From positions 232,977-296,976 of the forward strand of contig CAZIWN010000001.1 in the NCBI GenBank assembly GCA_964543265.1: 64,000 nucleotides of DNA. Direction: 5' to 3'. Source of the DNA: an uncultured Candidatus Saccharibacteria bacterium. GTDB lineage: Bacteria > Patescibacteriota > Minisyncoccia > UBA6257 > 1-14-0-10-40-38. The notes beneath the pieces were generated by a model. That model made no database searches, was not told the DNA's origin, and saw only the letters and a program-made list of their open reading frames with translations. A program made the position numbers and the translations under genes. This document shows positions 6,610 through 54,094 of this stretch, piece by piece (position 1 is the first letter of the stretch; each line of letters opens with the position of its first letter).

Positions 6610-6645
6610 AAGCTTGCGAATACTACGAGGAGGAATAACAAAGTA
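6610..6645 (+). repeat. intergenic structured repeat, copy 1 (3' half only, truncated)
   Basis: aagcttgcgaatactacgaggaggaataacaaagta matches the second half of the consensus (..AAGC.ATGCGGATACT.CGAGGAG.AAC.ACGAAGTA). Confidence 0.6.
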
Positions 6646-6672
6646 GATCGCTATTAAAATTGAAAAGCTTTT

Positions 6673-13231: not shown

Positions 13232-13600
13232 TTATTTCACCTCTACCTTGGCTCCAGCAGCTTCTAACTTAGTTTTCAAGTCAGTTGCTTCTTCTTTCTT
13301 AATTCCAGTTTTAACTGGCTTTGGAGCGCCATCAACTAAATCTTTAGCCTCCTTAAGTCCTAATCCCAAAGCTTCTCTCAAAACTTTAATGACTTGGATT
13401 TTTTGAGCTCCGCCATCAGTCAAAACAACATCAAACGCTGTTTTTTCTTCAGCAGCTTCAGCTCCAGCTCCACCACCCATTCCGGCAACTGGCATAGCCG
13501 CAGAAACTCCGAATTTTGCTTCCATCTTTTTTATTAATTCTGAAATTTCAACAACGGTCAAAGTTTCAACTTCAGAAATTATTTTATCTAACTTTTCCAT
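13232..13600 (-). CDS. rplL: 50S ribosomal protein L7/L12
   Basis: [32 protein letters not shown]. Ala-rich hinge. 122 aa. Confidence 0.9.
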
Positions 13601-13628
13601 ATTTTTAATTTATTTTTAACTTTTATAA

Positions 13629-14129
13629 TTATTTCTTTTTACCAACTTCATCCAACGTATACATCATTTTTCTTATTGGACCAGTAATAGCTCCCATAAG
13701 AAGTTGCAACAATACCTCTCTTGAAGGAAGTTTTGCAATTTCTGTAAACGCTTTAAGATCTAAGAAATTCTTTTTATTAATTTCATAAGCTCCTAAAATA
13801 TTTAGAACCTTCTTATCTTTAACAACTTCTTTTTGAAATTTATGAATTATTCCAGCAATAGAAGAGACATCTCCTTTTGCAAAAACTCCGGCAACCTGAG
13901 CTGTAAATGTTACTGGATCAAAATCTAATCCAGATTTTTTCATTGCCACAGCCAACAATCTCTTCTTAAAGATTCTTATTTGCCCACCTGCCGATTTTAA
14001 ATCTTTTTTCAATTTATTAACCGAAGCAGTTGGAATGCCGGTAAAATCTATAAATATCAAACTCTGATTCTTAGAAATTAAATCTCTTCCAAGCTTAATT
14101 TCCTTCGATTTCTGCTCTTTTGTTTTCAT
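13629..14129 (-). CDS. rplJ: 50S ribosomal protein L10
   Basis: 166 aa, L10 N-terminal pattern. Directly upstream of rplL. Confidence 0.85.
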   Translation of the reverse strand: MKTKEQKSKEIKLGRDLISKNQSLIFIDFTGIPTASVNKLKKDLKSAGGQIRIFKKRLLAVAMKKSGLDFDPVTFTAQVAGVFAKGDVSSIAGIIHKFQKEVVKDKKVLNILGAYEINKKNFLDLKAFTEIAKLPSREVLLQLLMGAITGPIRKMMYTLDEVGKKK

Positions 14130-15126: not shown

Positions 15127-15188
15127 ATAATACCAGAAATAATAAAATTTGTAAATAAATTACAAATCTTTCGATTATAAAAGATCAG

Positions 15189-15266
15189 CTACAAGGCGCG
15201 AGTGAGTACCGACTGAGATGTATTGATATAAATACTTCGAAGGAGGAGTGGAGTGAGCAACGCCGT
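15189..15266 (+). repeat. intergenic structured repeat, copy 2 (long subfamily with central palindrome)
   Basis: tacAAGGCGCGAGTGAGTACCGACTGAGATGTATTGATATAAATACTTCGAAGGAGGAG...AACGCCGTA. Flanked by inverted repeat cgattataaaagatcagc / gatgaattttataattg. Confidence 0.75.
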
Positions 15267-15323
15267 AGATGAATTTTATAATTGAAAGTATAAAAAAAAT
15301 GAGACCGATTGGTCTCATTTTTT

Positions 15324-15617
15324 TTACAACCCAGGTTCTACTCTTGGCGCCCTAGTCGATCCTTCTGGTTCGTCTATTTTAAGATTAACTCTTGCGTTGT
15401 GTTTTATTCCCACAATTCTTAAAAGGGATCTAATCGCTTTAGCGGTTGCCCCTTGTCTACCCACAACTTGACCCATATCTTCGGGATGAACTTTTAAAGT
15501 TAAAAGAACCCCCATCTCGTCAACTTTTCTATCGATTTTGACATCATCTGGATGATCAACAATCGCCTTAACTAAACTTTCTAAAAATTCTTGGTCTGCT
15601 ATTCTCATTTTCTTCAA
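15324..15617 (-). CDS. KH-domain RNA-binding protein (YlqC/UPF0109 family)
   Basis: GVLLTLKVHPEDMGQVVGRQGATAKAIRSLL. Conserved position between rpsP and trmD. Confidence 0.8.
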   Translation of the reverse strand: MKKMRIADQEFLESLVKAIVDHPDDVKIDRKVDEMGVLLTLKVHPEDMGQVVGRQGATAKAIRSLLRIVGIKHNARVNLKIDEPEGSTRAPRVEPGL

Positions 15618-18290: not shown

Positions 18291-18408
18291 AAAGTAAAAT
18301 TATAACAGAACCAATAAAAACAATGTATTCAAACCTCTTTAATTTAAATTCTTATATTCAACTAAAAATCGCTAGTGCTAGATAGATATAATTTTCAAAT
18401 TTTATAAA

Positions 18409-18473
18409 TACAAGGCGTTTCGACGAAGTTGTATCAGAGCCATGCGGATACTACGAGAAGAAACAACGAAGTA
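18409..18473 (+). repeat. intergenic structured repeat, copy 3 (short subfamily)
   Basis: tacAAGGCGTTTCGACGAAGTTGTATCAGAGCCATGCGGATACTACGAGAAGAAACAACGAAGTA. Confidence 0.8.
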
Positions 18474-18492
18474 TTTTTCAAAAATCAAAACA

Positions 18493-19176
18493 TTACAAAC
18501 TTAAAAGAGCTTTTTTGGCTGCGTCCACCTCTGCATCTTGCTTAGACTGTCCAGTTCCAGTCGCAATCAATTTTTCCCCAAAGAAAACTCCAGAAGTAAA
18601 AACTCTGGCATGGTCTGGTCCTTCTTCTCCTAAAACTTTATAAACTGGAGTTATTTTATTTTTCTCCTGTATTATTTCCTGTAACTTACTTTTGGCATCA
18701 TATTGCAAACCCTTAGCTAAAATCTCTTCTAAATTATTCATTACAAATTTCTTAATAAAAGCCTTGGCTGGCTTAATTCCCCCATCAAGATAAATTGCTC
18801 CAATAACAGCTTCTGCGCCATTAGCCAAAATAACATCTCTGGCTCTCCCAGAATCTTTTGCTTCTCCTTTAGAAAGCAAAATAAAATCATCTAATTTAAA
18901 ATCTCTGGCAATTTTCGCCATCATTTGAAAATTAACCAAAGCAGATCTTATCGGAGTTAATTTCCCTTCTGGGTGTTGCGGAAACAGTAAAAACAATTCC
19001 TCCGTTGTAATAAGCTCTAAAACAGCATCGCCCAAAAACTCCATTCTTTCGTTTTGGCCATACTGCCACTGCGGATTCTCATTCAAATATGAACGATGAG
19101 TCAGCGCTTCTTTTAGAAAATCCTGATTTTTAAATTTATAATCTATTATTTTTTCAAAACTCTTAAAATTATCCAT
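18493..19176 (-). CDS. rnc: ribonuclease III
   Basis: RNase III signature ERMEFLGDAVLEL. C-terminal dsRBD. Confidence 0.9.
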   Translation of the reverse strand: MDNFKSFEKIIDYKFKNQDFLKEALTHRSYLNENPQWQYGQNERMEFLGDAVLELITTEELFLLFPQHPEGKLTPIRSALVNFQMMAKIARDFKLDDFILLSKGEAKDSGRARDVILANGAEAVIGAIYLDGGIKPAKAFIKKFVMNNLEEILAKGLQYDAKSKLQEIIQEKNKITPVYKVLGEEGPDHARVFTSGVFFGEKLIATGTGQSKQDAEVDAAKKALLSL

Positions 19177-20566: not shown

Positions 20567-20655
20567 ACAAAAAAACTTTGTATTTTTCCACTGACTAAAA
20601 TAGAATAAGAGTATTAATCTTAGAAAAATACCAAAATATTAATATTTTTAACAAA

Positions 20656-20718
20656 GACAAGGCGTTTTTGCGAAGCTGTATCAAGCAATGCGGATACAGC
20701 GAGTAAAAAGAACGCAGT
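20656..20718 (+). repeat. intergenic structured repeat, copy 4 (short subfamily), immediately upstream of dnaE
   Basis: gacAAGGCGTTTTTGCGAAGCTGTATCAAGCAATGCGGATACAGCGAGTAAAAAGAACGCAGTA. Its internal ATG is in frame with dnaE and creates a spurious N-terminal extension in the ORF track. Confidence 0.75.
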
Positions 20719-20747
20719 ATTTGTTAGTAAAGATTAATATTAAACCA

Positions 20748-31279: not shown

Positions 31280-31407
31280 GTTTTTATTGTTTATACATAA
31301 TACATCGAACAAATTTAAAAATCAAACGCCAAAACAAAAAACCAACAATATTAAGATTTTTCATAAATACAGCCTAATTTTTCAATCTTGAAATATTAAA
31401 TAGTTAT

Positions 31408-31488
31408 ATGCAAGGCTTGGCCGAGAAGCGAACCGAGATGTACTAAATATTAGTACTTCGAGGGAGCATCGGAGGCCGTAACGAAGCA
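31408..31488 (+). repeat. intergenic structured repeat, copy 5 (long subfamily, central palindrome gtactaaatattagtac)
   Basis: atgCAAGGCTTGGCCGAGAAGCGAACCGAGATGTACTAAATATTAGTACTTCGAGGGAGCATCGGAGGCCGTAACGAAGCA. Flanks aaatagttat / gatagctattt are inverted. Confidence 0.8.
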
Positions 31489-31512
31489 GATAGCTATTTA
31501 AAATTTCAAAAA

Positions 31513-32166
31513 CTAAAGCTTTTGGACTTGCAAACTGTCTAACTCTACGGAAGTCTCTCTGCCGAATATAGTAACCAATACCTTTATCTTGCCTTTTTCA
31601 GCGTCAATTTCAGAAATCTTAGCATCATAATCCTTAAAAGGACCATCGGTAATCTTAATCATATCACCGACTTTCATATCAATATTAAACTTCATCTCCT
31701 TACCCTCCATCTTACCCATCAATTCCTCTATTTCTTTTCTTGAAAGTGGGCTTGGCATAGTTGATTCAGCACCAACGAACCCTGTAACGCGAGGAGTGTT
31801 TCTAACCACATACCAAGAATCATCAGTCATAATCATATCTACCAAAACATATCCGTGATAAATTTTTTCGTCAGCAACCTTTCTCTTTCCGTTCTTAATC
31901 TTAACTTTTTTCTCTTTTGGAACTAAAACATTAAAAATCTTATCTTCCATTCCCAAAGTTTCAACTCTTTGTTTTAAATACCTAACAACGGCATCTTCAT
32001 AGCCAGAATAGGTATGCACGGCATACCAATTTCTTTCTGAACTATTCTTTTTTCCAACAACATCACTCTCCCTCGCAGGATCAAGTAAATTACCTATTTT
32101 CTCAACTTCCTTATTTCCAGATTCTTCCGTAGGCAAATTTGCTCCAACGTTTAATTCGTCTGCCAT
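31513..32166 (-). CDS. nusG: transcription termination/antitermination factor NusG (about 40-aa acidic N-terminal extension)
   Basis: NGN domain (WYAVHTYSGYE) plus KOW (FKVGDMIKITDGPF). Lies between secE and rplK. Confidence 0.85.
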   Translation of the reverse strand: MADELNVGANLPTEESGNKEVEKIGNLLDPARESDVVGKKNSSERNWYAVHTYSGYEDAVVRYLKQRVETLGMEDKIFNVLVPKEKKVKIKNGKRKVADEKIYHGYVLVDMIMTDDSWYVVRNTPRVTGFVGAESTMPSPLSRKEIEELMGKMEGKEMKFNIDMKVGDMIKITDGPFKDYDAKISEIDAEKGKIKVLVTIFGRETSVELDSLQVQKL

Positions 32167-32353: not shown

Positions 32354-32500
32354 GGAAATATTATATGATATTACGGCTTAAAACGGCAAATGTCAACCGA
32401 GTAGTAGAAATCCGACTATGGATTTTGTCGCCTTGCGATCAGTCAGATTTTCGCTACCTGGTCAACCTCCCCAGAGATTGTTTCGCGATGATTAATTAAG

Positions 32501-32566
32501 TACAAGGAGCAACGACGAAGCTGTATTTGAGCCATGCGGATACTGCAAGGAGTTGGCGACGTAGTA
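32501..32566 (+). repeat. intergenic structured repeat, copy 6 (short subfamily)
   Basis: tacAAGGAGCAACGACGAAGCTGTATTTGAGCCATGCGGATACTGCAAGGAGTTGGCGACGTAGTA. Flanks attaattaag / aattaattaat are inverted. Confidence 0.8.
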
Positions 32567-32590
32567 ATTAATTAATAAGCGCGAAACACC

Positions 32591-34824: not shown

Positions 34825-35427
34825 TTATTTCCGTCTAATGAGAGCATAACGGCGGTCGTTCCATTCATCATCCAACCACAAACATCCCCAGAACCACCTG
34901 TAACCGCTCCAAAATAAATGACGAATACATATACCTCCAGCATCATCACGATATCTTGTTCCCCAGAAAAAGATCCATCCGATCCTCTTCCAATCATCGG
35001 GAATGAGCTCTGGGTAGGTAATTAAGTAATCAAGAACATTGGCGTTCAAAACCGGCTCTTTCTCAAGCTCTTTAAGGAGCTTATGGCCTTTAATAACCCT
35101 TCCATTTTGTTGGTTCGGCGAAAGATGCAACACTACAGCCGACAGGTTCCAGTTCAGAACTCCATCTCTTATATGATTTTCCACCTTAAGTCCATCTGGG
35201 ACTAACGGCTTGGCGTCGCAATCGATCTCCCGATTCCGATTATCCGACCCCAAATCAAGTAAATGCCGAAATGCATCTCGATCGACACCATCAACATTTC
35301 CATCTAGTAAATCTGACAATAAACCAGATTCAAGTAGATTCTGTAGGCGTTCTGGAGAAATACGTTTTTCCAGAACCATCTCTAAGATCTTCAAGCCTTG
35401 TGGCAGGGTTGCCAATTTCATTGACAA
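34825..35427 (-). CDS. hypothetical 200-aa protein with Trp-rich C-terminus in a ~45% GC islet
   Basis: ORF with SD AAGGA. Composition atypical for this genome. No family recognised. Confidence 0.3.
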   Translation of the reverse strand: MSMKLATLPQGLKILEMVLEKRISPERLQNLLESGLLSDLLDGNVDGVDRDAFRHLLDLGSDNRNREIDCDAKPLVPDGLKVENHIRDGVLNWNLSAVVLHLSPNQQNGRVIKGHKLLKELEKEPVLNANVLDYLITYPELIPDDWKRIGWIFFWGTRYRDDAGGICIRHLFWSGYRWFWGCLWLDDEWNDRRYALIRRK

Positions 35428-35721
35428 GTCCTTTTAGCTAAGGCGTCGCCGTAATCACTCCAATGCGGAGCAACTTTAGCGGGCCGATTGTGTTGCTTGG
35501 TCATAGCTTAAAAAGCTCATATTTTGTTATTTTTTTACATTAAATATTTTACTCTTTACAAAACACAAGCCCTTAAAGCTATGACCACTTTTATTACCAC
35601 TTTTTAATTAAATTGTAATGTGCTAATTAAATTTATATCACATTAATCCTTAAATGGTCAATTACTAATACACATTACTAAATATATTAGGTAATTATTT
35701 TTTAAATTCAAAAACGGCTAG

Positions 35722-35799
35722 ATGCAAGGCTTGGGCGAGAAGCGATTGAGGTGTATTAATTTAATACTCCGAAAGAGCATCGAAGACCATAACGAAGCA
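35722..35799 (+). repeat. intergenic structured repeat, copy 7 (long subfamily)
   Basis: atgCAAGGCTTGGGCGAGAAGCGATTGAGGTGTATTAATTTAATACTCCGAAAGAGCATCGAAGACCATAACGAAGCA. 24-bp inverted flanks tttaaattcaaaaacggctagatg / cagatggctgtttttcaatttaaa. Confidence 0.8.
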
Positions 35800-35822
35800 G
35801 ATGGCTGTTTTTCAATTTAAAA

Positions 35823-37118
35823 CTACCTAATAACAGCCTTCAAATCCTTAACCGTCATCTCCTCAACCTGCTTGTGAATTACGTTTATTTCTTCGTTAGT
35901 AAGCGTTCTTTCATGAGATCGATAAACAACTCTAAAGGTATAACTTTTTTTATTTTCTCCAAATTTTTTTGCGTTTTCAAATTGATCAATCAATTTAACT
36001 TCTTCTGCCAAATCCCCTGCGCAGTGTCTCACAATTTCATAAAATCCATTTAAAGATGTGGATTTATCTACAATAAAAGAAATGTCGCGGATAATTTCTG
36101 GATATTTGCTAACCTCCTCATAAACACTATTAATATTCTTAAATTGCTTTGTGATTCTTTCATCTTCAGACCACAAAACTCTAATATCTGGGATTTTCAT
36201 TTTCATAATTGCCAATCTTTCTAATCCGAATCCGAAAGCCCAGCCATTATAAATTTCTGGATCTAATCCAAAATTCCTTAAAACGTTATTATGCACGATT
36301 CCCGCACCCACAACCTCAAGCCAATCATTACCCCATTTAATTTCAATCTGAGTTGATGGATTTGTGAAAGGAAAGGCGTCGTCCAAAAACCTATATTCAA
36401 TAGAATTTCCAAAAACAGACTTCATAATATTCGCCAAAACATCCTGCAACATTTTCAGCGTTACTATTTTTTCGCTTTTTTTAGATACAAACATTCCATC
36501 TATCTGATGAAATACAGGAAAATGTTTTCTATCAATCTCATCTTTTCTATAAACTTTTCCGTAACACAATTCTCCCACCCAGCCATTTTTATTTAATCTT
36601 TCAAGAACCTCTTTGTCGCTTAAATAATAAAGCCACATAGAAGTCGTGTGAGTTCTAAGGATTCTTTCAGAATCTAAAAAATAAGTATCGGTTGGCCTTC
36701 TTCCTGGATGTTCTTGTGGAAAATTAAATAAATCAAAAGCATTTTTCACGGTTACAGTTTCCGGAATTTTAACCACATCAAAACCCTTAAAATCTTTAAT
36801 TTTTAAAATCTCATCCAAAATAAACTTAACTGGCGAATTTTCTTTGCGAGCTAAATCTGGCATTGCCATTAATCGCTTCAAGCGCACAGCATCAAAATCG
36901 TTTCCTTTTAAAATCCCAGCAACAACTGGCTTTTCTTTTAAATCTTCATACTCAATAAAGCTCCCTCCTGTTGGAGCTTTTATTTTCAAATCTTTTCTTA
37001 AAAATTGAGACTCTGGTGCGGTCTGCTTCTTTAAAAAAATAGGTGTTTTCTTTTTTAAGGTTGTCTTTTTATAAGTCTTCTTGGCTTTCAAATTTCCTTT
37101 CATCTTCATTTTATTCAT
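35823..37118 (-). CDS. pheS: phenylalanyl-tRNA synthetase alpha subunit with Lys-rich N-terminal extension
   Basis: Class II motif 3 GWAFGFGLERLAIMK. N-terminus MNKMKMKGNLKAKKTYKKTTLKKK. Confidence 0.85.
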   Translation of the reverse strand: MNKMKMKGNLKAKKTYKKTTLKKKTPIFLKKQTAPESQFLRKDLKIKAPTGGSFIEYEDLKEKPVVAGILKGNDFDAVRLKRLMAMPDLARKENSPVKFILDEILKIKDFKGFDVVKIPETVTVKNAFDLFNFPQEHPGRRPTDTYFLDSERILRTHTTSMWLYYLSDKEVLERLNKNGWVGELCYGKVYRKDEIDRKHFPVFHQIDGMFVSKKSEKIVTLKMLQDVLANIMKSVFGNSIEYRFLDDAFPFTNPSTQIEIKWGNDWLEVVGAGIVHNNVLRNFGLDPEIYNGWAFGFGLERLAIMKMKIPDIRVLWSEDERITKQFKNINSVYEEVSKYPEIIRDISFIVDKSTSLNGFYEIVRHCAGDLAEEVKLIDQFENAKKFGENKKSYTFRVVYRSHERTLTNEEINVIHKQVEEMTVKDLKAVIR

Positions 37119-37131
37119 AAAATTTTATTAG

Positions 37132-37203
37132 TAGCAGGGGTGGGAATCGGACCCACGGCCTAGCGCTTATGAAACGCTCGCTCTACCATTGAGCTACCCT
37201 GCC
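37132..37203 (-). tRNA. tRNA-Met or tRNA-Ile2 (anticodon CAT), elongator type
   Basis: Reverse complement GGCAGGGTAGCTCAATGGTAGAGCGAGCGTTTCATAAGCGCT...GGTCCGATTCCCACCCCTGCT. Anticodon loop TTCATAA. Confidence 0.75.
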
Positions 37204-37293
37204 ATATATTTACCCGATTAATAATAATTTTTTTGCGCAAAAAAAGCAAAATTTTAATGCCCCCATTTCGGGGGGCACTAAAATTAACATTTG

Positions 37294-37365
37294 TTGCGGA
37301 GGCCGGACTTGAACCGGCGACCTCCTGGTTATGAGCCAGACGAGCTACCACTGCTCTACTCCGCG
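37294..37365 (-). tRNA. initiator tRNA-fMet (anticodon CAT)
   Basis: Reverse complement CGCGGAGTAGAGCAGTGGTAGCTCGTCTGGCTCATAACCAGGAGGTCGCCGGTTCAAGTCCGGCCTCCGCA. C1 x A72 mismatch. Confidence 0.75.
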
Positions 37366-37513
37366 TCTTTATTATATAATAAAATCCCATATTTGCGCAA
37401 TAGTCAAATAAGCCTTATTTTAAAGGATTTATAGAACCATCTAATAAATAGACGCTACAACTTGATTATAGTGATAAAAATATTTATACTTCTCAAGTCA
37501 GAATAAAAGAAAT

Positions 37514-37585
37514 GCAGTGGTAGCTTAGCGGCAAAGCACCTCCCTGTCACGGAGGGGACCGCGGGTTCAAATCCCGTCCACTGCG
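37514..37585 (+). tRNA. tRNA-Asp (anticodon GTC)
   Basis: GCAGTGGTAGCTTAGCGGCAAAGCACCTCCCTGTCACGGAGG...GGTTCAAATCCCGTCCACTGCG. Confidence 0.85.
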
Positions 37586-37595
37586 CAAAAATAAA

Positions 37596-41604: not shown

Positions 41605-41669
41605 TCAAATAATACCAAAAAAACCAGACTTAAACCAAAAAAAACTCATCTCTTTTTTAGATAAATAAG

Positions 41670-41736
41670 TACAAGAAGCGACGACGAAGCTGTATATAAG
41701 CGAAAGCGAATACTGCGAGGAGGAGACGACGAAGTA
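41670..41736 (+). repeat. intergenic structured repeat, copy 8 (short subfamily)
   Basis: tacAAGAAGCGACGACGAAGCTGTATATAAGCGAAAGCGAATACTGCGAGGAGGAGACGACGAAGTA. Perfect ~21-bp inverted flanks tctcttttttagataaataag / attatttatctaaaaagagat. Confidence 0.85.
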
Positions 41737-41745
41737 ATTATTTAT

Positions 41746-42207
41746 CTAAAAAGAGATACTAAAGGCTCTAGCGGCCGACCCAGCTCTTCCGACAGATTTA
41801 ATACAAGTAAGAACATCTGGAGTCGTTCCCTCATCATGAACCGCACCAAAAGGACAGCCAGCATCTTTAGAAATTAAAAGCTCATAAGTCTGATTGTCGG
41901 TTAATTTACCAGTAAAAGAATTATCATATTGATTATTTCCAGACTCCAAACAAACATCAGTAGAGGCGATAAGCGCCTGATCTGGTGCATTTAAATTATT
42001 ACACCTAAAAACCTTAAAAAGACCTCTCTCCAACGCTGCGTCTGCGGAATATATTGCCTTAACGGAATCAACGGCTATATTCGTTTGTCTAGTTTGATTT
42101 AAGGTTAAAACACCAGCAACAGTAGTTGCGACCAAAAATACAGACGCCAAAAACAAAACAGTAACCAACATAACTTGCCCAGAACTATTTTTATTAAAAA
42201 AGTACAT
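41746..42207 (-). CDS. pilus-assembly / minor pilin-like protein (PilX-like N-terminal helix)
   Basis: N-terminal hydrophobic helix MLVTVLFLASVFLVATTVAGVL. Position in the pilin cluster. Confidence 0.4.
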   Translation of the reverse strand: MYFFNKNSSGQVMLVTVLFLASVFLVATTVAGVLTLNQTRQTNIAVDSVKAIYSADAALERGLFKVFRCNNLNAPDQALIASTDVCLESGNNQYDNSFTGKLTDNQTYELLISKDAGCPFGAVHDEGTTPDVLTCIKSVGRAGSAARAFSISF

Positions 42208-42215
42208 TTTTTAAA

Positions 42216-42773
42216 TTATTCAAAATTTCTTGCAGAAGTTGTCATTTGTAAATCGGTAAATATTCCAGTCAACTTTGGATCCTTTGACCCAACTCTTAAA
42301 AATAAATTTACTCTCGAAGGCCATTCTTCTCCAAAACTAGATAATAATTTTAAGTCAACTAACCTCACCTCAAAAATCTGCACATCAACCAAAGATGAAG
42401 TTAATCTTTCAAAAGTAACTCCCAAATCATCACTTTTTTCTACTGATTTTTCTACAGAGTTAAGTCTATATATGGAATCTCCTCCTTTTGCATTTCTGAA
42501 TCTAAAGGAATTACCAACATCTCCACCAATACAACTACCAGAAAAATCAGCAACACAAAAACTAGATCCAGTTCTAATATCTCTGGAAATAGATTCTAAA
42601 ACTAAACTAGAATTATCATTTGTAGCCATAAGAGAAATAACCGCTTTTTGCACTCTTAAAGAATTAACGAATATTCCAGAAACAATACCCACTAGAATAA
42701 CGAAAATAGCCATCGAGACCAAGAGCTCAACAACAGTAAATCCATTATTAATTTTAATTTTTAATCTTTGCAT
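42216..42773 (-). CDS. type IV minor pilin-like protein (prepilin N-methylation motif)
   Basis: NNG-FTVVELLVSMAIFVILVGIVSGIF (G|FTxxE). Confidence 0.6.
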   Translation of the reverse strand: MQRLKIKINNGFTVVELLVSMAIFVILVGIVSGIFVNSLRVQKAVISLMATNDNSSLVLESISRDIRTGSSFCVADFSGSCIGGDVGNSFRFRNAKGGDSIYRLNSVEKSVEKSDDLGVTFERLTSSLVDVQIFEVRLVDLKLLSSFGEEWPSRVNLFLRVGSKDPKLTGIFTDLQMTTSARNFE

Positions 42774-42785
42774 TTTAATGTTGCT

Positions 42786-43418
42786 TTACGGCGTTCTCCA
42801 TGGAAGAAAAAAGTCTTGAACCAATAACGAAAACTTACCACCCTTACTTTCCCAACCAACAGCAGAAGTCACTCTATATTCTAAATCTAAATCCGGAGTT
42901 GCCCCAGAATGGGGATCATCTATTATTATAAGTCTTTTAAATTTAGTCCTATTTCCAGAAGGATCATAAGAATATCTGCCCGCATCAGAATAAGTTATAT
43001 TTCTAGCATCCGAACAGCTAAAAAGAAGATCATACACATTTTTCTTATTTGGCTCTCCGCCAATAACACAAGAATCTATTTTTCTTAAAACATTATCATC
43101 AAAACCAACTTCATAAATACCAGCCTCAATCTTTCCCGCGCCCCAACCATAAAAAGAATACGGAGAGGCATTATCTCTTTCTATAATATATTGTCTATCA
43201 AAAAAATTCTTTATTATTTCAATCCCCTCAGCCGATAAAAACGTTGCCGTATAAGTATCACCATTAATTCTATTAAAACCCAAAGACTTATTTAATAAAG
43301 TTACAATACCCAAAACAGCAGCAATAATCGCCGATGATGCTACCAATAATTCTATGATGGATTGACCTTTATTTTTATGAAAAATCATATTTGATTCAAT
43401 TTTTTCAAAGTCTAGCAA
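42786..43418 (-). CDS. type IV minor pilin-like protein
   Basis: KGQSIIELLVASSAIIAAVLGIV prepilin-like leader and helix. Confidence 0.5.
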   Translation of the reverse strand: MLDFEKIESNMIFHKNKGQSIIELLVASSAIIAAVLGIVTLLNKSLGFNRINGDTYTATFLSAEGIEIIKNFFDRQYIIERDNASPYSFYGWGAGKIEAGIYEVGFDDNVLRKIDSCVIGGEPNKKNVYDLLFSCSDARNITYSDAGRYSYDPSGNRTKFKRLIIIDDPHSGATPDLDLEYRVTSAVGWESKGGKFSLLVQDFFLPWRTP

Positions 43419-44080
43419 GAGGTTGTAAACTCATCTAAATTAATCTGAGAGGATCTATTTATTTTTATTAAAGAACATCCACCTCCAGAAAATTCAAGCT
43501 GAACATTAGCCTCCTTATAGCTAGGACTATCTGGATTAAAAATAACAGTTGGATCTGGTGGCTGAAAGAAAACATCCATAGAAGTTTTTGAAGAAGCTGA
43601 GCTACAAGAAAATCCGGAAGGTAAAACATCTAAGCATTTAAATTCTAATATATTTTTATCAAGAGTTCCTTTTTCAAAAACCTGAGCCGGCTCAGACGGA
43701 TCAAAAACTCCAACACTAGATCCAGAACATGTCCCCGATGGATCTATATCTTTATATACATAATAAGAATCATCACCCGAAGAATTCTTTTCAAAATGAA
43801 CTCCCCATCCGCAAATAATCTCCGTTGGTCTAATTCCGGAAATAGTAAATTGAGTGGGCTGATAAGTTTCTAATGAATATGATTTAGCTTTAAAAATGGC
43901 GCTCACGACCAATGATCTTTCGTTTGAAAAAATTAAAAACTTTCTACTATCTCCAGAATAAATTATTAAAATAGATGAAAGGACAACTGAGATACCAAGA
44001 ACAACCACCATCTCGATAACGGTAAAAGCTGACTCTGAAAAGAATTTTTTAAAAAATTTACTACCAATCATTAATTTCAT
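43412..44080 (-). CDS. type IV minor pilin-like protein
   Basis: SAFTVIEMVVVLGISVVL prepilin-like helix. Confidence 0.5.
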   Translation of the reverse strand: MKLMIGSKFFKKFFSESAFTVIEMVVVLGISVVLSSILIIYSGDSRKFLIFSNERSLVVSAIFKAKSYSLETYQPTQFTISGIRPTEIICGWGVHFEKNSSGDDSYYVYKDIDPSGTCSGSSVGVFDPSEPAQVFEKGTLDKNILEFKCLDVLPSGFSCSSASSKTSMDVFFQPPDPTVIFNPDSPSYKEANVQLEFSGGGCSLIKINRSSQINLDEFTTSC

Positions 44081-44085
44081 CCTGA

Positions 44086-45045
44086 CTAATTAATCGGAAA
44101 AAGGCTAAAATAAAAATTTAAAATATCAACACCAAAAAACATTACAACCACAGTGGAAAGAACGATAAACGGACCAAACGGCACCAACGTTTTCATCCCT
44201 GCCCTTTTCCCCAACATTAAAATTATACTCCAAAAAGAACCTATTATAAACGAACCCAAAAGAGCCAAAATAATATCTGGCCAACCCAATAAAACACCCA
44301 AAGCTATCGCTAACTTAACATCGCCAAAGCCCATTCCCCTGCCTCTGCTTAAAAAATATATTCCTCCAAATAAAACCAAACCAAAACCCAACCCCAATAC
44401 ACTAGAAATAAAAATTGAATCTCTAAATCCGAACAATGAAGCATAATGACCTAAAAACGAAAATCTATAAAAATCAAATAAAGAATATTTATATTTAATA
44501 AAAGCTAAAATAATCCCAAGGATTAAAATTAATAAATTCGAACTATCGGGTATAATCCGCAGTCTCAAATCAACTAAAGAAATAAAAACCAGAGTTAGTA
44601 AAAATAATATATAAATTCCGCATAAAATATAAAAAACAACAGGCATAGACCCGATAACAAACTTAAATTCATAAACCCTATTAACTAATTTAGGAACAAA
44701 AACAAAGATTAAACCAGAGATAATCTCGATTATTGGATACTGAAAAGATATTTTTTGCTTACAATTACCACACCTCCCCAAAAGGAATAAGAAACTTAAA
44801 ATGGGAATCAAGTTTATCCAAGAAATTTCCTTACCACAACTCATACAATTGCTTCTTCCAGAAATCTTCTTTAAATCAAAAACTTTTCCATCTTCAGAAT
44901 ATCTTAAAGACAAAACATTTAAAAAACTTCCAAACAATGTTCCAAAAACAAAAAGTATAAAATTTATCATAAAAATATTATTTATTTGTTTTGAATTATA
45001 AATGTCAGCTACAAGGCGCGAGTGAACAAAGACTAATATTATCAC
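44086..45045 (-). CDS. pilD: prepilin peptidase (A24 family)
   Basis: N-terminal CxxC..CGNC zinc motif. 6-8 TM helices. Aspartyl peptidase A24 region. Confidence 0.8.
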   Translation of the reverse strand: MIILVFVHSRLVADIYNSKQINNIFMINFILFVFGTLFGSFLNVLSLRYSEDGKVFDLKKISGRSNCMSCGKEISWINLIPILSFLFLLGRCGNCKQKISFQYPIIEIISGLIFVFVPKLVNRVYEFKFVIGSMPVVFYILCGIYILFLLTLVFISLVDLRLRIIPDSSNLLILILGIILAFIKYKYSLFDFYRFSFLGHYASLFGFRDSIFISSVLGLGFGLVLFGGIYFLSRGRGMGFGDVKLAIALGVLLGWPDIILALLGSFIIGSFWSIILMLGKRAGMKTLVPFGPFIVLSTVVVMFFGVDILNFYFSLFPIN

Positions 45046-45058
45046 ACATTAATTAATC
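45010..45058 (+). repeat. intergenic structured repeat, copy 9a (degenerate 5' part of long subfamily)
   Basis: agctacaaggcgcgagtga is identical to the 19-mer in copy 2. The rest has decayed. Confidence 0.55.
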
Positions 45059-45073
45059 TTTATTTGAGATGAG

Positions 45074-45138
45074 TACAAGACGCGACGACGAAAGTGTACA
45101 TAAGCTAAGCGAGTACTCTGAGGAGGAGCAACGCAGTA
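45074..45138 (+). repeat. intergenic structured repeat, copy 9b (short subfamily), tandem to 9a
   Basis: tacAAGACGCGACGACGAAAGTGTACATAAGCTAAGCGAGTACTCTGAGGAGGAGCAACGCAGTA. 12-bp inverted flanks tatttgagatga / tcatctcaaata. Confidence 0.8.
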
Positions 45139-45155
45139 ATCATCTCAAATATAAA

Positions 45156-45749
45156 TTAATTCCCGTAGAAGCATTCTTTGTTACCCATACAATAATAATC
45201 CCCATCGCAATCTATCCCTCCAGGATAAAGATTCTTACAAGACTCAGAAGAGCAAGAAACCGGTGACAATTTAGAAATTATATCTGCATTATCGATATCA
45301 TCACTTAAAAATTTACTATCAGCAGAAATCCTAGCCCTTAAAATATAGCACTGACCTCTCGGTATAGACGTTCCAGAACCAAGCTGCACAAAATAACTAT
45401 AAGTTTCACCCAAGGAAACATCTGGATCGTTTTGTAGCGGCTCCAATCCTATATCTGCTCTTTTTAATATATCAGACAACTCTTGCCAACTTAAAGGATC
45501 TTCACCTGGGTTATTAGGAGTAACAGCTCCACGACACTCAGAAGACACTATACTGCCAGGATAAAAACCGCATTTCAATTTAAAAAGCTCTAAAGATTGA
45601 GCCGCACTCTTCAAATCTGCAACTCTTTGATCATCTTTTGTTTTTTTTCTCACATCCAATAAACTAGGCAAAACAAGGGAAATAATAACGCCGATAACGC
45701 CGATAACTATTAATATTTCAACCAATGTAAAACCCTTTTTATTGAACAC
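45156..45749 (-). CDS. type IV pilin
   Basis: KKGFTLVEILIVIGVIGVIISL prepilin motif. Cys pair near the C-terminus. Confidence 0.7.
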   Translation of the reverse strand: MFNKKGFTLVEILIVIGVIGVIISLVLPSLLDVRKKTKDDQRVADLKSAAQSLELFKLKCGFYPGSIVSSECRGAVTPNNPGEDPLSWQELSDILKRADIGLEPLQNDPDVSLGETYSYFVQLGSGTSIPRGQCYILRARISADSKFLSDDIDNADIISKLSPVSCSSESCKNLYPGGIDCDGDYYCMGNKECFYGN

Positions 45750-46263
45750 CGACGCAATAAATATTATCTACACCTCCATTAATACCACAACTAAAACTAG
45801 TGAAATAACTTGTGAAATTAATATCCCCGTCATCTATATCAGACTTTAAAGCAGAATTATCGGTTTCTAAATGAGCGGTTAAAATATATGCTTGATTAGT
45901 TGTTCCTGGATGATATTCATAATTAGGCACAGAACCAACTTCAAATGGGATTCTAACATTTAACGAGCTCTTTAAAACAGACGACAATAGCGTTCCATCC
46001 GTCCAAGCTCCATCAGAAAAATTACCAGGAGTACATGAAGCACCAGCTCCAGCCGCTCCTCCAGGATAATATCCACATTTATTGTAATAAAGCTCTAGCG
46101 CACTCTGAACCTGCTTCAAATCAGCAATTCTTCTAGCATCACGAGCAGATTGCCTAGCTCCATTTAAACTCACTAAAAGCGCCGAAGCTAAAATACCGAT
46201 AATAGCTATTACTATTAATAATTCCACCAGAGTAAAACCTTTCCTATTTTTAATTTTATTCAT
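45739..46263 (-). CDS. pilA: type IV pilin (candidate major pilin)
   Basis: RKGFTLVELLIVIAIIGILASALL. C-terminal Cys pair. Confidence 0.7.
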   Translation of the reverse strand: MNKIKNRKGFTLVELLIVIAIIGILASALLVSLNGARQSARDARRIADLKQVQSALELYYNKCGYYPGGAAGAGASCTPGNFSDGAWTDGTLLSSVLKSSLNVRIPFEVGSVPNYEYHPGTTNQAYILTAHLETDNSALKSDIDDGDINFTSYFTSFSCGINGGVDNIYCVGVQ

Positions 46264-46303
46264 ATATTTTTAATTCTTCTAATTTGGATTTATAAAGAGC
46301 AGA

Positions 46304-46367
46304 TACGAGACGTTTCGAGGAAGTTGCATCAAGCTATGCGGATACTACGACGAGAAACAACGAAGTA
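46304..46367 (+). repeat. intergenic structured repeat, copy 10 (short subfamily)
   Basis: tacGAGACGTTTCGAGGAAGTTGCATCAAGCTATGCGGATACTACGACGAGAAACAACGAAGTA. Confidence 0.8.
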
Positions 46368-46388
46368 TATGCCTTTATAAATTCAAAT

Positions 46389-47600
46389 TTATCTAATGAC
46401 TTGTATTAAATTATATATCGGAAGTAGTAGCGCCGCAAACATAAACCCAACCATTAAACCCAAAAACACCATTATAACTGGCTGTATTAATTCAGAGATA
46501 TTAGAAACTAAATTATCAACCTCTCTAGAATAGAAGGAATTTACCTTCTGAAACATTTCTTCCAATTTTCCAGTCTGCTCACCCACAGATATCATCTGCG
46601 TCACAATTGGCGGAAAATATTTAGCATAAAGCTGAAATGCTTGGCTTAATTGTTCACCCCTCCTAAGTCTTTCAACAATTTCGTGTATTACCTCTTCGTA
46701 CAACTCACTGCCAACAGTGTGACCAGCAATCTCCAAAGATTGAGTTATAGGAATTCCTCCCTTAATTAAAACGCTAGCCACTTCAGAAAATCTTGCAATG
46801 TATAATTTTCTGAAAAGATTACCAAGTCCAGGAATTGCCAAAACAATTTGATTTAAAATAGCTTTTCCCTCCCTGCTCCTGAAATAATCCAAAACAATAA
46901 TTAAAAATATTATTATAAAAACAATAATTCCAGCCCACCATTCATTAATAAAGTCTCCTAAACTTAGAAATATTCTAGTTATTAAAGGAAGCTCAAAATT
47001 AGCTTCAGTAAAAATAGGTTTTATCTGCGGAAAAACTAAACCAACCAAAACTCCTCCAACTATAAGCGATAAGCTGATTACAAAAACAGGATAAATCATA
47101 GCTGTCCTCACCTTCGAAGATAAAAGAAGCTCTTTTTCTAAATAATTAGCTAAATACTCCATCACCTCCTCTAGCCTTCCGGTAACTTCAGCAGATTGGA
47201 CCAAATTTACATAGAAATCAAAAAATATATTTCCATGTTTTTGTAAGGATTGAGAGAAAGAAAGTCCAGAACTTATATCCTGAGAAATTTCATATAAAGC
47301 CTCCTTTAAAACAGAATTAGTTGTTTGATAATAAAGAGAATTTAAAGAGTCTGTTAGTGATATTTTCGCGCCCAACATCGCGGCAAATTGTCTAGTAAAT
47401 ATCGCTAAATCTTTAGATTTAACCCTTTTCCAAAAAAGAAAAATTTCGTTATACCATTTAGGCTCCGAATATTTATCTATGCTTAAAATAAAAAGATCAT
47501 GAGAAATTAAGACACTAGTCGCAGTATCTTTATCCACAGCCTCAACATTACCCACCTGAAGCTCTCCAGTTTTTGTTCTTGCGCTGTATCTAAATTTCAT
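46389..47600 (-). CDS. pilC: type IV pilus assembly platform protein PilC (GspF family)
   Basis: Duplicated GspF domains. 403 aa. Three TM segments. Confidence 0.85.
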   Translation of the reverse strand: MKFRYSARTKTGELQVGNVEAVDKDTATSVLISHDLFILSIDKYSEPKWYNEIFLFWKRVKSKDLAIFTRQFAAMLGAKISLTDSLNSLYYQTTNSVLKEALYEISQDISSGLSFSQSLQKHGNIFFDFYVNLVQSAEVTGRLEEVMEYLANYLEKELLLSSKVRTAMIYPVFVISLSLIVGGVLVGLVFPQIKPIFTEANFELPLITRIFLSLGDFINEWWAGIIVFIIIFLIIVLDYFRSREGKAILNQIVLAIPGLGNLFRKLYIARFSEVASVLIKGGIPITQSLEIAGHTVGSELYEEVIHEIVERLRRGEQLSQAFQLYAKYFPPIVTQMISVGEQTGKLEEMFQKVNSFYSREVDNLVSNISELIQPVIMVFLGLMVGFMFAALLLPIYNLIQVIR

Positions 47601-47620
47601 AATTCCTATTTTTTATTTCT

Positions 47621-48694
47621 CTACATTCTCTCTAATAAAATTCTTAATTCTGATTGATTTAAAGAATAAAGCTCAGCAACCTCTGGAGAAATTATCCTCT
47701 GCCTTACTAAATTAGCAAGAGATCTATTTAAAGTAATCATTCCTTCCTGCATGTTTGTCTCTATTACCAAATCTATCTGATAAGCCTTTCTCTCTCTAAT
47801 TAAGTTTCTTATAGCAGAATTCACAAACATTATTTCGCAAACAGGTATACGCCCTCCTCCAACCTTAGGAAGAAGTCTTTGAGAAACTATAGCCACAAGA
47901 GTTGCAGCAAGCTGAGAAGTAACTTGACCCTGTTGCTCGGCAGGAAAACTGTCTATTATTCTGTCTATTGTCTGAGCAGCTGAATTTGTATGAAGAGTGG
48001 AAAAAACTAAGTGTCCAGTTTCAGCAGCTGTCATGGCTGTAGAAATTGATATAACGTCTCTCATTTCTCCTATCATAACAACGTCTGGGTCCTGTCTTAA
48101 AAGAGATTTAAGTGCGTGATGAAAGCTAATAGTATCTGTCCTCACCTCTCTTTGTGAAATAATTGACCTGTCCTGTGCAAAAAGATATTCGATAGGATCC
48201 TCAATTGTAACAATATGTTCAGTTCTCGTATGATTAACTTCATCAACTAGGGCCGCCAAACTAGTAGATTTTCCATGACCAGCGGGACCCACAAAGAGAA
48301 CAAATCCTTGAGATAGTTTAGTTAAGTCATGAAGTACTGGAGGTAATCCCAATTGCTCAATAGTTTTAACCTTACTAGGAATAAGCCTTAAAGCAGCAGC
48401 CATATAACCTCTTTGAAAAAAAACATTTACCCTAAACCTAGCCTTATCTTCATAAGAATATGAAAAGTCCAATTCGCGCCTAGCTGCAAATTCTTGACTC
48501 TGAGAATCAGTTAGAAGAGACGTCACCAACCCTTCCGCAATTTCCGGAGAAACTATCGGCTCAGCATCAACGGGAACCAACACTCCATCAATTCTCAAGC
48601 TTGGCTTTTTACCAACACCTATATGAATATCTGAAGCATTTTGCTTAACCGCCAAAAGCATCAAACTCTCTAACCTATCTTTATAGTCAGTCAT
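47621..48694 (-). CDS. pilT: twitching-motility retraction ATPase PilT
   Basis: Walker A GPAGHGKST, Asp box, Walker B DPDVVMIGEMRD, His box. 357 aa. Confidence 0.85.
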   Translation of the reverse strand: MTDYKDRLESLMLLAVKQNASDIHIGVGKKPSLRIDGVLVPVDAEPIVSPEIAEGLVTSLLTDSQSQEFAARRELDFSYSYEDKARFRVNVFFQRGYMAAALRLIPSKVKTIEQLGLPPVLHDLTKLSQGFVLFVGPAGHGKSTSLAALVDEVNHTRTEHIVTIEDPIEYLFAQDRSIISQREVRTDTISFHHALKSLLRQDPDVVMIGEMRDVISISTAMTAAETGHLVFSTLHTNSAAQTIDRIIDSFPAEQQGQVTSQLAATLVAIVSQRLLPKVGGGRIPVCEIMFVNSAIRNLIRERKAYQIDLVIETNMQEGMITLNRSLANLVRQRIISPEVAELYSLNQSELRILLERM

Positions 48695-48790
48695 ATTTGT
48701 TTATTTATAAATTATAACTTATTTAGTAATCCCCTGCGAAGTGTAAAAATATATAAAATCTATTTAAGAAAATTATAAAAATTAAGAAAG

Positions 48791-48855
48791 TGCGCAGAGC
48801 GACGACGAAGTTGCATTAAAGCTGTGCGGATACTGCGAGGAGAAACGACAAAGCA
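48791..48855 (+). repeat. intergenic structured repeat, copy 11 (short subfamily)
   Basis: tgcGCAGAGCGACGACGAAGTTGCATTAAAGCTGTGCGGATACTGCGAGGAGAAACGACAAAGCA. Confidence 0.8.
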
Positions 48856-48875
48856 ATTTCTTCATTTTTATAATT

Positions 48876-50615: not shown

Positions 50616-50621
50616 TTTTAT

Positions 50622-50915
50622 CTAAAAAGGAACAAATGGATTTTCTCGACCATTAACACCGAACCCAGGTTTTGGAGCAAAACTTCTTAATTTTTCCAAA
50701 TCTTTATTTTTAAAAACAGCGCTCGGATCTATATATTGAGAATTAGCAATAATCTCAGCCTCTTTTAAACCAACCGGTAAAATTACTTCAAATTTAGGAG
50801 TGTCGGAAAAAAACAAATAATAAGCAGCCACTACAAAAAAACCGATTATAAAAAGAACAGTTGTCCACCTCACCCAATTTATTTTAGCTTGCTTAGGTTC
50901 AAATATTATTGCCAT
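50622..50915 (-). CDS. small bitopic protein in the pilus locus
   Basis: 97 aa with one TM helix. Function unknown. Confidence 0.3.
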   Translation of the reverse strand: MAIIFEPKQAKINWVRWTTVLFIIGFFVVAAYYLFFSDTPKFEVILPVGLKEAEIIANSQYIDPSAVFKNKDLEKLRSFAPKPGFGVNGRENPFVPF

Positions 50916-50920
50916 AAATT

Positions 50921-51475
50921 TTATTCAGTATAATAAGTATTTAATACGACCGAGTAAGAATTATTACCCTTATCATCTGGAATAATATTCATAGAAACAA
51001 TGTCCATAATTCTCATATTTTTTTCCACGTCAGTTATAAATGTCTTGAATTTTTCATAAGGACCCTTTAATTGCAATTTAACTTGCAAAACTGAATTTTG
51101 AGTAAAGTCTCTGCCTTTAGCAGACTTATTTGGAAGAAGATTAAAATCTAAAGAAACTAAAAGTATTCCATCAATTTTAGAAATTGCATTTATTTGATAC
51201 AAAAAAGATTCATACTCAGGATCTTTCGGAACTATATTTAAAGCATTTTTTTCAAGATTAGCTAATTGGTCCTGATAATTAGAAAGCACATCCTTAACTT
51301 TTGCCACAACACTTTCTTGGTTTGCTATTGTAGATTTATTCGCAGAATATTCCCCTCTTAAAACCGATACCTGGCTATAAGCTGGTCTTAAAAAGAACAA
51401 AAACAAAATAATGGAACCAAATAAAAGCCCCAGACTTAAAACCAAACTTATAAATCTTTTAGATGATCCTTTCAT
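50921..51475 (-). CDS. PilO-like pilus assembly protein
   Basis: Single N-terminal TM, coiled-coil, periplasmic domain. Position after pilN. Confidence 0.5.
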   Translation of the reverse strand: MKGSSKRFISLVLSLGLLFGSIILFLFFLRPAYSQVSVLRGEYSANKSTIANQESVVAKVKDVLSNYQDQLANLEKNALNIVPKDPEYESFLYQINAISKIDGILLVSLDFNLLPNKSAKGRDFTQNSVLQVKLQLKGPYEKFKTFITDVEKNMRIMDIVSMNIIPDDKGNNSYSVVLNTYYTE

Positions 51476-52017: not shown

Positions 52018-52061
52018 TTTTTATACAAATTTCTCTACAAAATCTTGAAAGATAAAGTAAT

Positions 52062-52127
52062 TACAAGGAGCTCTGACGAAGCCGTATTAAAGCCAAGCAC
52101 ATACGGCAAGAAAGAATCGATGCAGTA
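52062..52127 (+). repeat. intergenic structured repeat, copy 12 (short subfamily, perfect internal stem gccgtat/atacggc)
   Basis: tacAAGGAGCTCTGACGAAGCCGTATTAAAGCCAAGCACATACGGCAAGAAAGAATCGATGCAGTA. Confidence 0.8.
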
Positions 52128-52148
52128 ATTGGCTAGTTTGCAAATATT

Positions 52149-53222: not shown

Positions 53223-53262
53223 ATTTGATTGTTTGTAATAAAATTGTAACATAAAAAATGAG

Positions 53263-53979: not shown

Positions 53980-54018
53980 AAACCACATAGGATTTATAAT
54001 TTAAATAAATTTAAAAAA

Positions 54019-54094
54019 TACGAGGAGTTTCGACGAAGGTGTATGTAAGCCACGCGAATACTCCGAGGAGAAAACGACAAAGTATTTTTTAAAT
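54019..54094 (+). repeat. intergenic structured repeat, copy 13 (short subfamily)
   Basis: tacGAGGAGTTTCGACGAAGGTGTATGTAAGCCACGCGAATACTCCGAGGAGAAAACGACAAAGTA. Perfect 16-bp inverted flanks aaataaatttaaaaaa / ttttttaaatttattt. Confidence 0.85.

Follow-up and report, generated by a model that had tools for sequence, protein, structure and literature searches.

The 64-kb window analysed in this study (64,000 nt; positions 232,977 to 296,976 of contig CAZIWN010000001.1, assembly GCA_964543265.1, from an uncultured Candidatus Saccharibacteria bacterium) contains a family of long hairpins located between its genes. The copy of main interest, copy 5, lies on the plus strand between the minus-strand genes nusG and rplK. 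The whole hairpin (31388..31509) comprises a copy-specific A+T-rich lower stem and a conserved core, and lies 3 nt from the nusG stop codon (31513-31515), upstream of rplK. The core (ATATGC...GCAGAT, 31406..31491) is a series of helices parted by purine-only internal loops and scores 92.5 bits with R2, the covariance model of the long form of the element. A second covariance model, R1, represents the short form, and both were scanned over the window. The tip of the hairpin in the fold is the sequence that the first-pass annotation described as a central palindrome, GTACTAA-ATA-TTAGTAC (GTACTAAATATTAGTAC, 31440..31456), which occupies columns 41-47/51-57 of the long-form alignment A4.

Two further long-form copies were found on the plus strand of the window. 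Copy 7 (35700..35822; R2 = 85.4 bits) abuts the pheS stop codon (35823-35825, minus strand), with its core at 35720-35802 and its apical palindrome, GTATTAATTTAATAC, at 35753-35767. Copy 2 (15168..15288; R2 = 71.6 bits) is more divergent and lies between a KH-domain gene (15324-15617, minus strand) and trmD, with the apical helix GTATTGATATAAATAC at 15220-15235. Copies 5 and 7 share both arms, as the first-pass annotation had claimed. The arm CAAGGCTTGGSCGAGAAGCGA matches at 31411-31431 (copy 5) and 35725-35745 (copy 7), and the arm GAGCATCGRAGRCCRTAACGAAGCA at 31464-31488 (copy 5) and 35775-35799 (copy 7); each arm has exactly two matches in the window, with 0.00 expected in 100 shuffles. The description of these copies as nearly identical was overstated, since they are 83% identical over the core. 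The remaining differences, at approximately 17% of core positions, include several compensatory or G.U changes.

Each of the three long copies folded into one rod by minimum free energy, as did 12 window copies folded with their flanks. The 100-nt plus-strand folds of copies 5 and 7 reached -37.3 and -30.6 kcal/mol, respectively, each as one continuous rod, whereas the complement strands folded more weakly (-26.3 and -16.4 kcal/mol, respectively). With its flanks, copy 5 folded at -46.9 kcal/mol. The fold z-scores of copies 5, 7 and 2 were -5.4, -3.9 and -1.5, respectively. The three copies carry different central palindromes, and in these folds all three form the paired apical helix, as had been expected of them. 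The palindromes are perfect in copies 5 and 7, whereas that of copy 2 pairs over 4-5 bp only.

The conserved core of about 85 nt reads AGATGC-AAGGC-helix-GAGrAGCG-..-apical helix-..-GAGCAyCG-..-helix-AACGAAG-GCAGAT. Watson-Crick helices of 2-8 bp alternate with A/G internal loops, many of which are 5'-GA/3'-AG tandem mismatches and some of which hold one extra purine. The lower stem is copy-specific and often consists of an A-tract and a T-tract around a short G+C stem, resembling a bidirectional intrinsic terminator. The whole element is one long imperfect hairpin, and the central palindrome is its apical helix, which is free to vary while it stays paired.

Pairing in the long form was counted in fixed columns of alignment A4, which holds ten distinct sequences. 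The results showed that 89.6% of the cells were standard pairs, compared with 73.0 +/- 1.5% in shuffles (0 of 500 reached 89.6%), and only 25-45% of the cells paired when the 3' partners were slid. Changes on both sides were found in 20 of the 28 pairs. Because the structure was derived by folding copy 5, the unslid register is favoured; given the effect size and the independent retrieval of homologs, we consider this bias a minor concern. In the short form, 94.2% of the cells were paired and 9 of 19 pairs showed double changes. The long-form covariation is among the clearest signals obtainable from ten sequences. The proposal that the central hairpin covaries was correct: the apical helix is GTAC/GTAC or GTAT/ATAC in the window, changed on both sides and still paired, and homologs outside the window carry compensatory versions (CCGTAC/GTACGG, CAATAGG/CCTATTG and GTCGACC/GGTCGGC). 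The same helix is G+C-rich in these homologs, which excludes unpaired low-complexity AT runs.

The long-form pairs also carry information on the strand. At the paired columns of the purine-rich (plus) strand, 19 G.U pairs were counted against 5 A.C pairs, and the internal-loop bases were A 144, G 95, C 18 and T 0. Because of this G.U excess and the U-free purine loops, the data point to the purine-rich plus strand as the folded and selected single-stranded molecule. The plus strand is the better fold in 9 of 12 window copies. The short form has no such excess (G.U 3, A.C 5). An ungapped arm-against-arm count of G.T and A.C in the lower stems was uninformative owing to bulges, and the fixed-column counts were used instead. 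The purine-only loops point to a specific protein partner.

The first-pass annotation regarded the palindrome as an extra part of a long subfamily; this view was not upheld, and the long form is no local oddity. The R2 alignment places the GTAT...ATAC helix of the short form on the same model positions as the apical helix of the long form, so the palindrome is not the extra part; what the short form lacks instead is the inner module GAGrAGCG...GAGCAyCG. The long form is the widespread one, occurring in the closest genome (L060) and in six further distinct metagenome versions, and is probably the older form. We infer that the nine short copies of the window are a lineage-specific burst of a derivative minus one inner module.

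The best named matches of the window NusG were from Harrisonbacteria and Wolfebacteria (Parcubacteria/Patescibacteria). Two public sequencing runs, SRR12487045 and DRR736439, also contain this genome. L060 is syntenic, with a NusG 79% identical to that of the window, and its nusG-rplK spacer holds a homologous long-form element, the ortholog of copy 5. Because the ortholog is in the same spacer, copy 5 appears to predate the split from L060. The helix TTGGCC/GGCCGT of copy 5 has become ATGAA/TTCAT in the ortholog. No other copy was found in 20 syntenic kb of L060, and none in 43 kb of three further relatives (NusG 74-77% identical). The core of the L060 element is 73% identical to copy 5 and 77% identical to copy 7, and copy 5 is 72-79% identical to Kaiserbacteria-type copies. 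Since copies 5 and 7 are closest to each other (83% versus 73-77% to the ortholog), copy 7 is probably a paralog of copy 5, or was converted by copy 5, after the split from L060. Copying within the lineage, with approximately 13 bp of stem on each side, is therefore a reasonable form of the duplication including flanks that had been suggested; with about 17% of the core differing, it was not recent.

The site downstream of pheS offers a further comparison. All that L060 has at this position is a hairpin of 6 bp, TGGCTA-AAA-TAGCCA, with TTTTT after it. Copy 7 consists of CGGCTAGA, the core and GATGGCTG, followed by TTTTT, and lies at the same distance from the pheS stop codon as the mini-hairpin of L060. 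This suggests that the core was inserted into the loop of a resident hairpin, or that the apex was precisely deleted in L060.

The repeat search, R1 and R2 together yielded 14 intergenic copies in the window, of which 3 are long, 9 short and 2 truncated; every one lies on the plus strand. Roughly one in four spacers holds a hairpin element. When 30 nt of flank are included, nearly all copies continue into a long lower stem of their own, for a hairpin total of 110-125 nt. The nine short copies score 75-92 bits with R1. One of them (18405..18477, 91.6 bits) follows the RNase III gene (18493-19176, minus strand), 15 nt past its stop codon. Long imperfect RNA hairpins are typical substrates of RNase III. 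The copy at 20652..20723 (75.7 bits) is between divergent genes, a hypothetical gene and dnaE. The copy at 32497..32570 (whole hairpin 32479-32588) follows the gyrB stop codon by 2 nt and is absent from the gyrB-secE spacer of L060. The copy at 54015..54088 is between convergent genes, and its lower stem, specific to this copy, pairs perfectly over 25 bp (53997-54021 with 54082-54106).

The densest stretch of copies in the window is the type IV pilus operon (41746-53321, minus strand), which encodes pseudopilins, PilD, PilC, two T2SSE ATPases, PilO and PilM; five short-form copies lie in its spacers and a sixth just past pilM. The first (41666..41740, hairpin 41648-41757) overlaps the stop codon of the gene 41746-42207. 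The second (45070..45142) overlaps the stop codon of a pilin gene and abuts a truncated copy (44989..45039), the 5' half of a copy-2-like long form that includes about 20 nt of lower stem and is 75% identical to copy 2. R1 also detected copies at the pilC stop codon (46300..46371), at the stop codon of a pilB-like ATPase gene (48787..48859) and approximately 17 nt after the pilM stop codon (52058..52131). The other truncated copy (6610..6650) is the 3' half of a short form and lies downstream of a minus-strand tRNA-Glu gene; like the first, it was found by the repeat search.

The element has a strict orientation relative to its flanking genes. Relative to the stop codon of a minus-strand gene, the hairpin base of 11 of the 12 window copies is placed between 12 nt of overlap and 35 nt past it, with gaps of 3 nt for copy 5, 0 nt for copy 7 and 2 nt for the gyrB copy. 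Because the hairpins abut the stop codons of minus-strand genes, the purine-rich strand is antisense to the flanking genes. The element likewise occurs on metagenome contigs just past a gene on the opposite strand (gyrA, rseP, tmRNA or a hypothetical gene) or between divergent genes. In the region 1760-2255 of L072, a long-form element lies between ssrA and infC, 25 nt past the 3' end of the tmRNA gene, with smpB adjacent. This case and the truncated window copy past tRNA-Glu indicate that the element also follows RNA genes. A scan with a terminator consensus listed none of the elements, and its loop limit of 8 nt makes it blind to such long loops. Promoter-like sites were at or below shuffle expectation in a consensus scan, which was uninformative.

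Metagenomes were scanned with a pattern of three short anchor motifs only, with the helices left unspecified. The scan returned 16 loci, of which 12 were true homologs representing six distinct sequences, on contigs of 43-62% GC and with the same rod. The segments between the anchors were complementary in all 12. One carrier that was checked is Kaiserbacteria/Paceibacterota-like by GyrA, and four Kaiserbacteria-like loci with GyrA 88-93% identical to that of the carrier had no copy in 77 kb. The presence of the element is patchy, with 0 to at least 12 copies per 64 kb. One metagenome carried a 100% identical 122-nt hairpin, including the lower stem, at two different loci (L077 1475-1562 and L081 733-820). 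These two copies are flanked at the hairpin base by CATTA/CATTA and ATAG/ATAG, which may be chance or a hint of an insertion mechanism. Two contigs of another metagenome end inside the element; the element breaks metagenome assemblies in this way. An empty-site comparison downstream of gyrA in Kaiserbacteria relatives was attempted, and the spacers were too diverged to align.

Further scans gave no true copies. A scan of GTDB representative contigs with the short-form pattern gave 57 single matches in unrelated phyla, none multi-copy, which we regard as chance matches, and pattern scans of viral contigs gave no true copy. Rfam 15 had no match to the window at the gathering score, to 31290-31530 at E<=10 or to ten metagenome loci at E<=1. 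No description of the element was found in full-text literature searches. Three outside loci carry nuclease or integrase genes with no evident link to the element: a free-standing GIY-YIG nuclease gene of 92 aa in L069 (6031-6309, plus strand, 1.2 kb from the element), HNH genes in the Kaiserbacteria-like L083 and L086, and an rve integrase gene, also in L086.

By Pfam, the window contains housekeeping genes, the type IV pilus operon, RNase III and a small defence-like cluster, and neither a transposase nor a Nop-domain protein. PheRS, encoded next to copy 7 (35823-37118, minus strand), is a single chain of 431 aa with a class II core (tRNA-synt_2d) and a C-terminal FDX-ACB domain, the monomeric architecture of the mitochondrial type. 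No pheT adjoins pheS in the window, and the same PheRS architecture occurs in L058, L060, L065 and L066. Between pheS and gyrB lies a gene for a Trp-rich hypothetical protein of 200 aa (34825-35427, minus strand), without a Pfam or PDB sequence match; pheS and gyrB are adjacent in L060, L065 and L066, so this gene is a lineage-specific gain beside copy 7. The gene next to rplK (L11; 30854-31312, minus strand) is convergent thyA, not rplA (L1). The rplJ-rplL pair (13232-14129, minus strand) is 17 kb from rplK, no scanned window open reading frame (ORF) has a Ribosomal_L1 domain, and rplA likewise does not follow rplK in L060, L065 and L066. Two tRNA-Met(CAT) genes lie 90 nt apart on the minus strand beside a divergent tRNA-Asp gene (37131-37586). 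Four consecutive hypothetical genes (4021-6553, plus strand; 110, 208, 195 and 311 aa) have no Pfam match, and two of them share 42 nt at 71% identity (4625-4666 and 5225-5266) and may be paralogs. The defence-like cluster (60051-63489, minus strand) encodes a GmrSD_N + HNH endonuclease, a ThsB-like TIR-domain protein and an EcoRI-type adenine methyltransferase, and no hairpin elements occur there.

Taken together, we believe that the rod-shaped hairpin is somewhat more probably than otherwise (about 55%) a previously undescribed family of structured palindromic repeats of Parcubacteria (Paceibacteria), similar to REP sequences or to miniature inverted-repeat transposable elements (MITEs). Such a REP/REPIN- or MITE-like palindrome may be selfish or domesticated. 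Hairpins at gene 3' ends would be its targets, or would be copied along with it, and at these sites it would be tolerated or would be of use as a terminator, as a hairpin that protects or stabilises the 3' end, or as a site for RNase III. A candidate protein partner would recognise the purine-rich strand in single-stranded form, whether DNA or RNA, with the purine loops as the recognition surface; recognition of this kind would explain the conserved structure and the loop purines. We infer both the function and the mode of spread.

Several observations weigh against such a repeat. Pfam scans of 59 window ORFs (one more was translated and not scanned) and 20 ORFs of the fetched loci found no transposase, RAYT-like protein or any other candidate for mobilising the element. 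Target-site duplication is not consistent: direct repeats of 4-5 nt occur at L077 and L081 alone, and none were present at the clean hairpin boundaries of copies 2 and 5, the short copy 48787..48859, L060 and L067. The lower stems differ between copies and so cannot be terminal repeats bound by a transposase. Between genomes of 34% GC and those of 57-62%, the core retains 72-79% identity, which is unusually high conservation for a selfish repeat, and because of this conservation a host function fits equally well. A terminator role is not supported at copy 5 itself, which lacks a clean U-tract. Finally, the better-folding purine strand is antisense to the genes; it is not obviously transcribed, and it is not the one whose exposure would be expected at the replication fork.

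Known repeat families share part of these features. REP and REPIN sequences are extragenic, mostly at gene 3' ends, vary from few to very many copies with lineage-specific bursts, and are mobilised by RAYT or IS200-IS605-type Y1 transposases, whose gene in the same genome usually has REPs on its flanks. The REP unit is a species-specific palindrome of 20-40 nt with a GT[AG]G head and can act as a terminator or mRNA stabiliser. The rods are similarly multi-copy and extragenic, with hairpin pairing kept by compensatory changes, and a single-strand, strand-specific recognition is plausible for them. However, the rod unit is 75-125 nt with a conserved 85-nt core, and it lacks the GT[AG]G head: long-form cores have the ends AGATGC...GCAGAT and short-form cores TAC...GTA, and the only CTAC...GTAG is that of copy 2. 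Its arms are not simple inverted copies, as purine.purine mismatches are kept, and the core is conserved across genera at 34-62% GC. No RAYT or Y1_Tnp gene was found among the same 59 and 20 ORFs. Hairpin MITEs that are transcribed, such as the Correia elements of Neisseria and the enterobacterial ERIC/IRU sequences, are intergenic imperfect palindromes of about 100-150 nt that are co-transcribed, serve as RNase III/E substrates and affect mRNA stability; ERIC is conserved across genera. The rods are intergenic imperfect palindromes of similar length and share with ERIC the conservation across genera.

The rods differ from hairpin MITEs in several respects. The window copies have no terminal inverted repeats in common, as lower stems are shared only by L077 and L081 and partly by copies 5 and 7; there is no fixed target-site duplication; and the loops are purine-only and the orientation to flanking genes is strict. 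Like bidirectional intrinsic terminators, including the inverted pairs of DNA uptake sequences in Neisseria, the rods place a hairpin with copy-specific stems right after a stop codon. The terminator layout of an A-tract, a G+C stem and a T-tract was found in copy 7, L071, L079 and L082 (T4-T6 after the G+C stem, on both strands). Unlike terminators, the rods have an 85-nt conserved covarying structure in place of a loop of 3-8 nt, and clean U/T-tracts are missing from copy 5, L067 and L072.

The alternative that survives best is a family of small structured RNA genes, in which the purine-rich strand would be antisense to its neighbours, the tandem G.A loops would form a scaffold for protein like a kink-turn or loop E, and the family would be kept for a host function. 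We regard this as possible, though rather improbable. The strong covariation fits it, as do the strand evidence of G.U over A.C pairs with U-free loops, the identity of the core across very different GC contents and the retention of the nusG-rplK copy at the orthologous position in L060. However, no recognisable plus-strand promoter lies upstream, and the flanks show no conserved upstream motif. An RNA gene family also agrees poorly with the absence of the element from most close relatives, with the wide variation in copy number, with identical copies at two loci and contigs that break inside the element, and with truncated copies. The defining features of a kink-turn, a 3-nt bulge and C/D box sequences, are not present.

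Kink-turn or box C/D RNA was rejected as an identity for the same element: tandem 5'-GA/3'-AG pairs are present, but the loops are 2x2, 2x3 and 1x1 and there are no RUGAUGA or CUGA boxes. Likenesses of GAAGCAG/CAAGGCAGAUG to signal recognition particle (SRP) RNA and of GAGCCGUA to group II intron domain V were considered and dropped; the helix sequence is not conserved in either case, and Rfam gave no SRP or intron match. A small ORF was also considered, since a conserved ATG in AGATGCAAGG opens ORFs of 11-24 codons in some copies. It was rejected because copy 2, L072 and every short copy have no such ATG, the frame is interrupted by indels, and the variation follows helices, not codons. An integron attC site was rejected as well: RYYYAAC...GTTRRRY boxes are absent from both strands of the core, nusG, gyrB, pheS and pil genes lie next to the copies, and Pfam found no integrase in the window.

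It is also conceivable, at low probability, that the rods are the nucleic-acid partner of a dedicated protein system of Paceibacteria. This could be a domesticated single-strand transposase of the HUH type with a population of hairpins, as in REPIN-RAYT systems, or protein-bound hairpin RNAs dispersed across the whole genome, distributed like small nucleolar RNAs or TIGR elements, that mark or regulate gene 3' ends. Literature searches found no description of REPIN-RAYT systems in Candidate Phyla Radiation (CPR) bacteria.

It is very unlikely that the rods belong to a TIGR-Tas system as dispersed units resembling stem-loop tigRNAs, the dual-spacer guide RNAs of box C/D type that a Nop-domain Tas protein binds. 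TIGR-Tas systems are frequent in Patescibacteria, stem-loop tigRNAs have variable palindromic stems that are conserved only next to the boxes, the tigRNA loop forms a secondary hairpin in the TasR clades of CPR bacteria, and PateTasR relies on a symmetric pair of CUU/UG boxes (Faure et al. 2025, PMC12045711; Xu et al. 2026, bioRxiv 10.64898/2026.09.09.750476). TasA and dead TasR proteins also occur in Minisyncoccota. The rods resemble these tigRNAs in their variable stems, in conservation beside small motifs (TAC/GTA or TGC/GCA next to the core), in pseudo-two-fold halves with a hairpin in the loop, and in a CUU...UG on the gene-sense strand, where each short-form half reads CUU-N13-(U/C)G beside a helix. 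Nevertheless, tigRNAs have two variable unpaired spacers of 8-12 nt between box C and box D, whereas the would-be spacers of the rods (13 nt between CUU and UG) are mostly conserved (CGUCG..CUCCU), pair together and covary, which independent guides would not do. The copies are 1.2-14 kb apart among housekeeping genes, with no tandem array and no tas gene nearby. No Nop or Tas protein was found in the scanned window ORFs by Pfam, and four hypothetical proteins had no relevant PDB sequence match. The long form has approximately 26 nt per side, including a 6-bp helix, and misfits the 14-nt interval of box C, 9-nt spacer and box D. The strand evidence favours the opposite strand.

An origin of copies 5 and 7 by recent segmental duplication of a chromosomal block is hardly credible. 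The similar flank of about 13 nt on each side, which the first-pass annotation noted correctly, is what speaks for it, but it is not neighbouring DNA. It is the lower part of each copy's own hairpin stem, whose arms differ between the copies by compensatory or G.U changes (T-A to C-G, A-T to G.T and T-A to T.G). The similarity ends at the stem base, and the window repeat search and Pfam found the DNA and genes beyond it to be unrelated; the neighbours are nusG and rplK for copy 5, pheS and a hypothetical gene for copy 7, and a KH-protein gene and trmD for copy 2. Because nothing is shared beyond the hairpin, this was not a segmental duplication, and an identity of only 83% agrees with this. 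That the copies are merely look-alikes, unrelated intrinsic terminators or A+T-rich palindromes placed after stop codons and in part flanked by A- and T-tracts, can be set aside, as copies and genomes share 70-83% identity over the 85-nt core, no chance match to either arm is expected, the counterpart helices of other genomes are rich in G+C, and non-Watson-Crick loop residues are conserved.

Parcubacteria genomes are very small and tightly packed. In genomes so compact, a hairpin of 110-125 nt in about a quarter of the spacers is a notable investment. If the palindromic repeat is mobile, it would be a new repeat type that spreads with no need of conserved termini or duplicated targets. Should it be an element of the host instead, termination, processing or stability would have a common signal at 3' ends in a phylum whose expression signals are almost unknown. 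The protein-partner reading, if true, would give the most reduced bacterial genomes a structured element of a new class. The covariance models R1 and R2 would allow a census of the element across the phylum.

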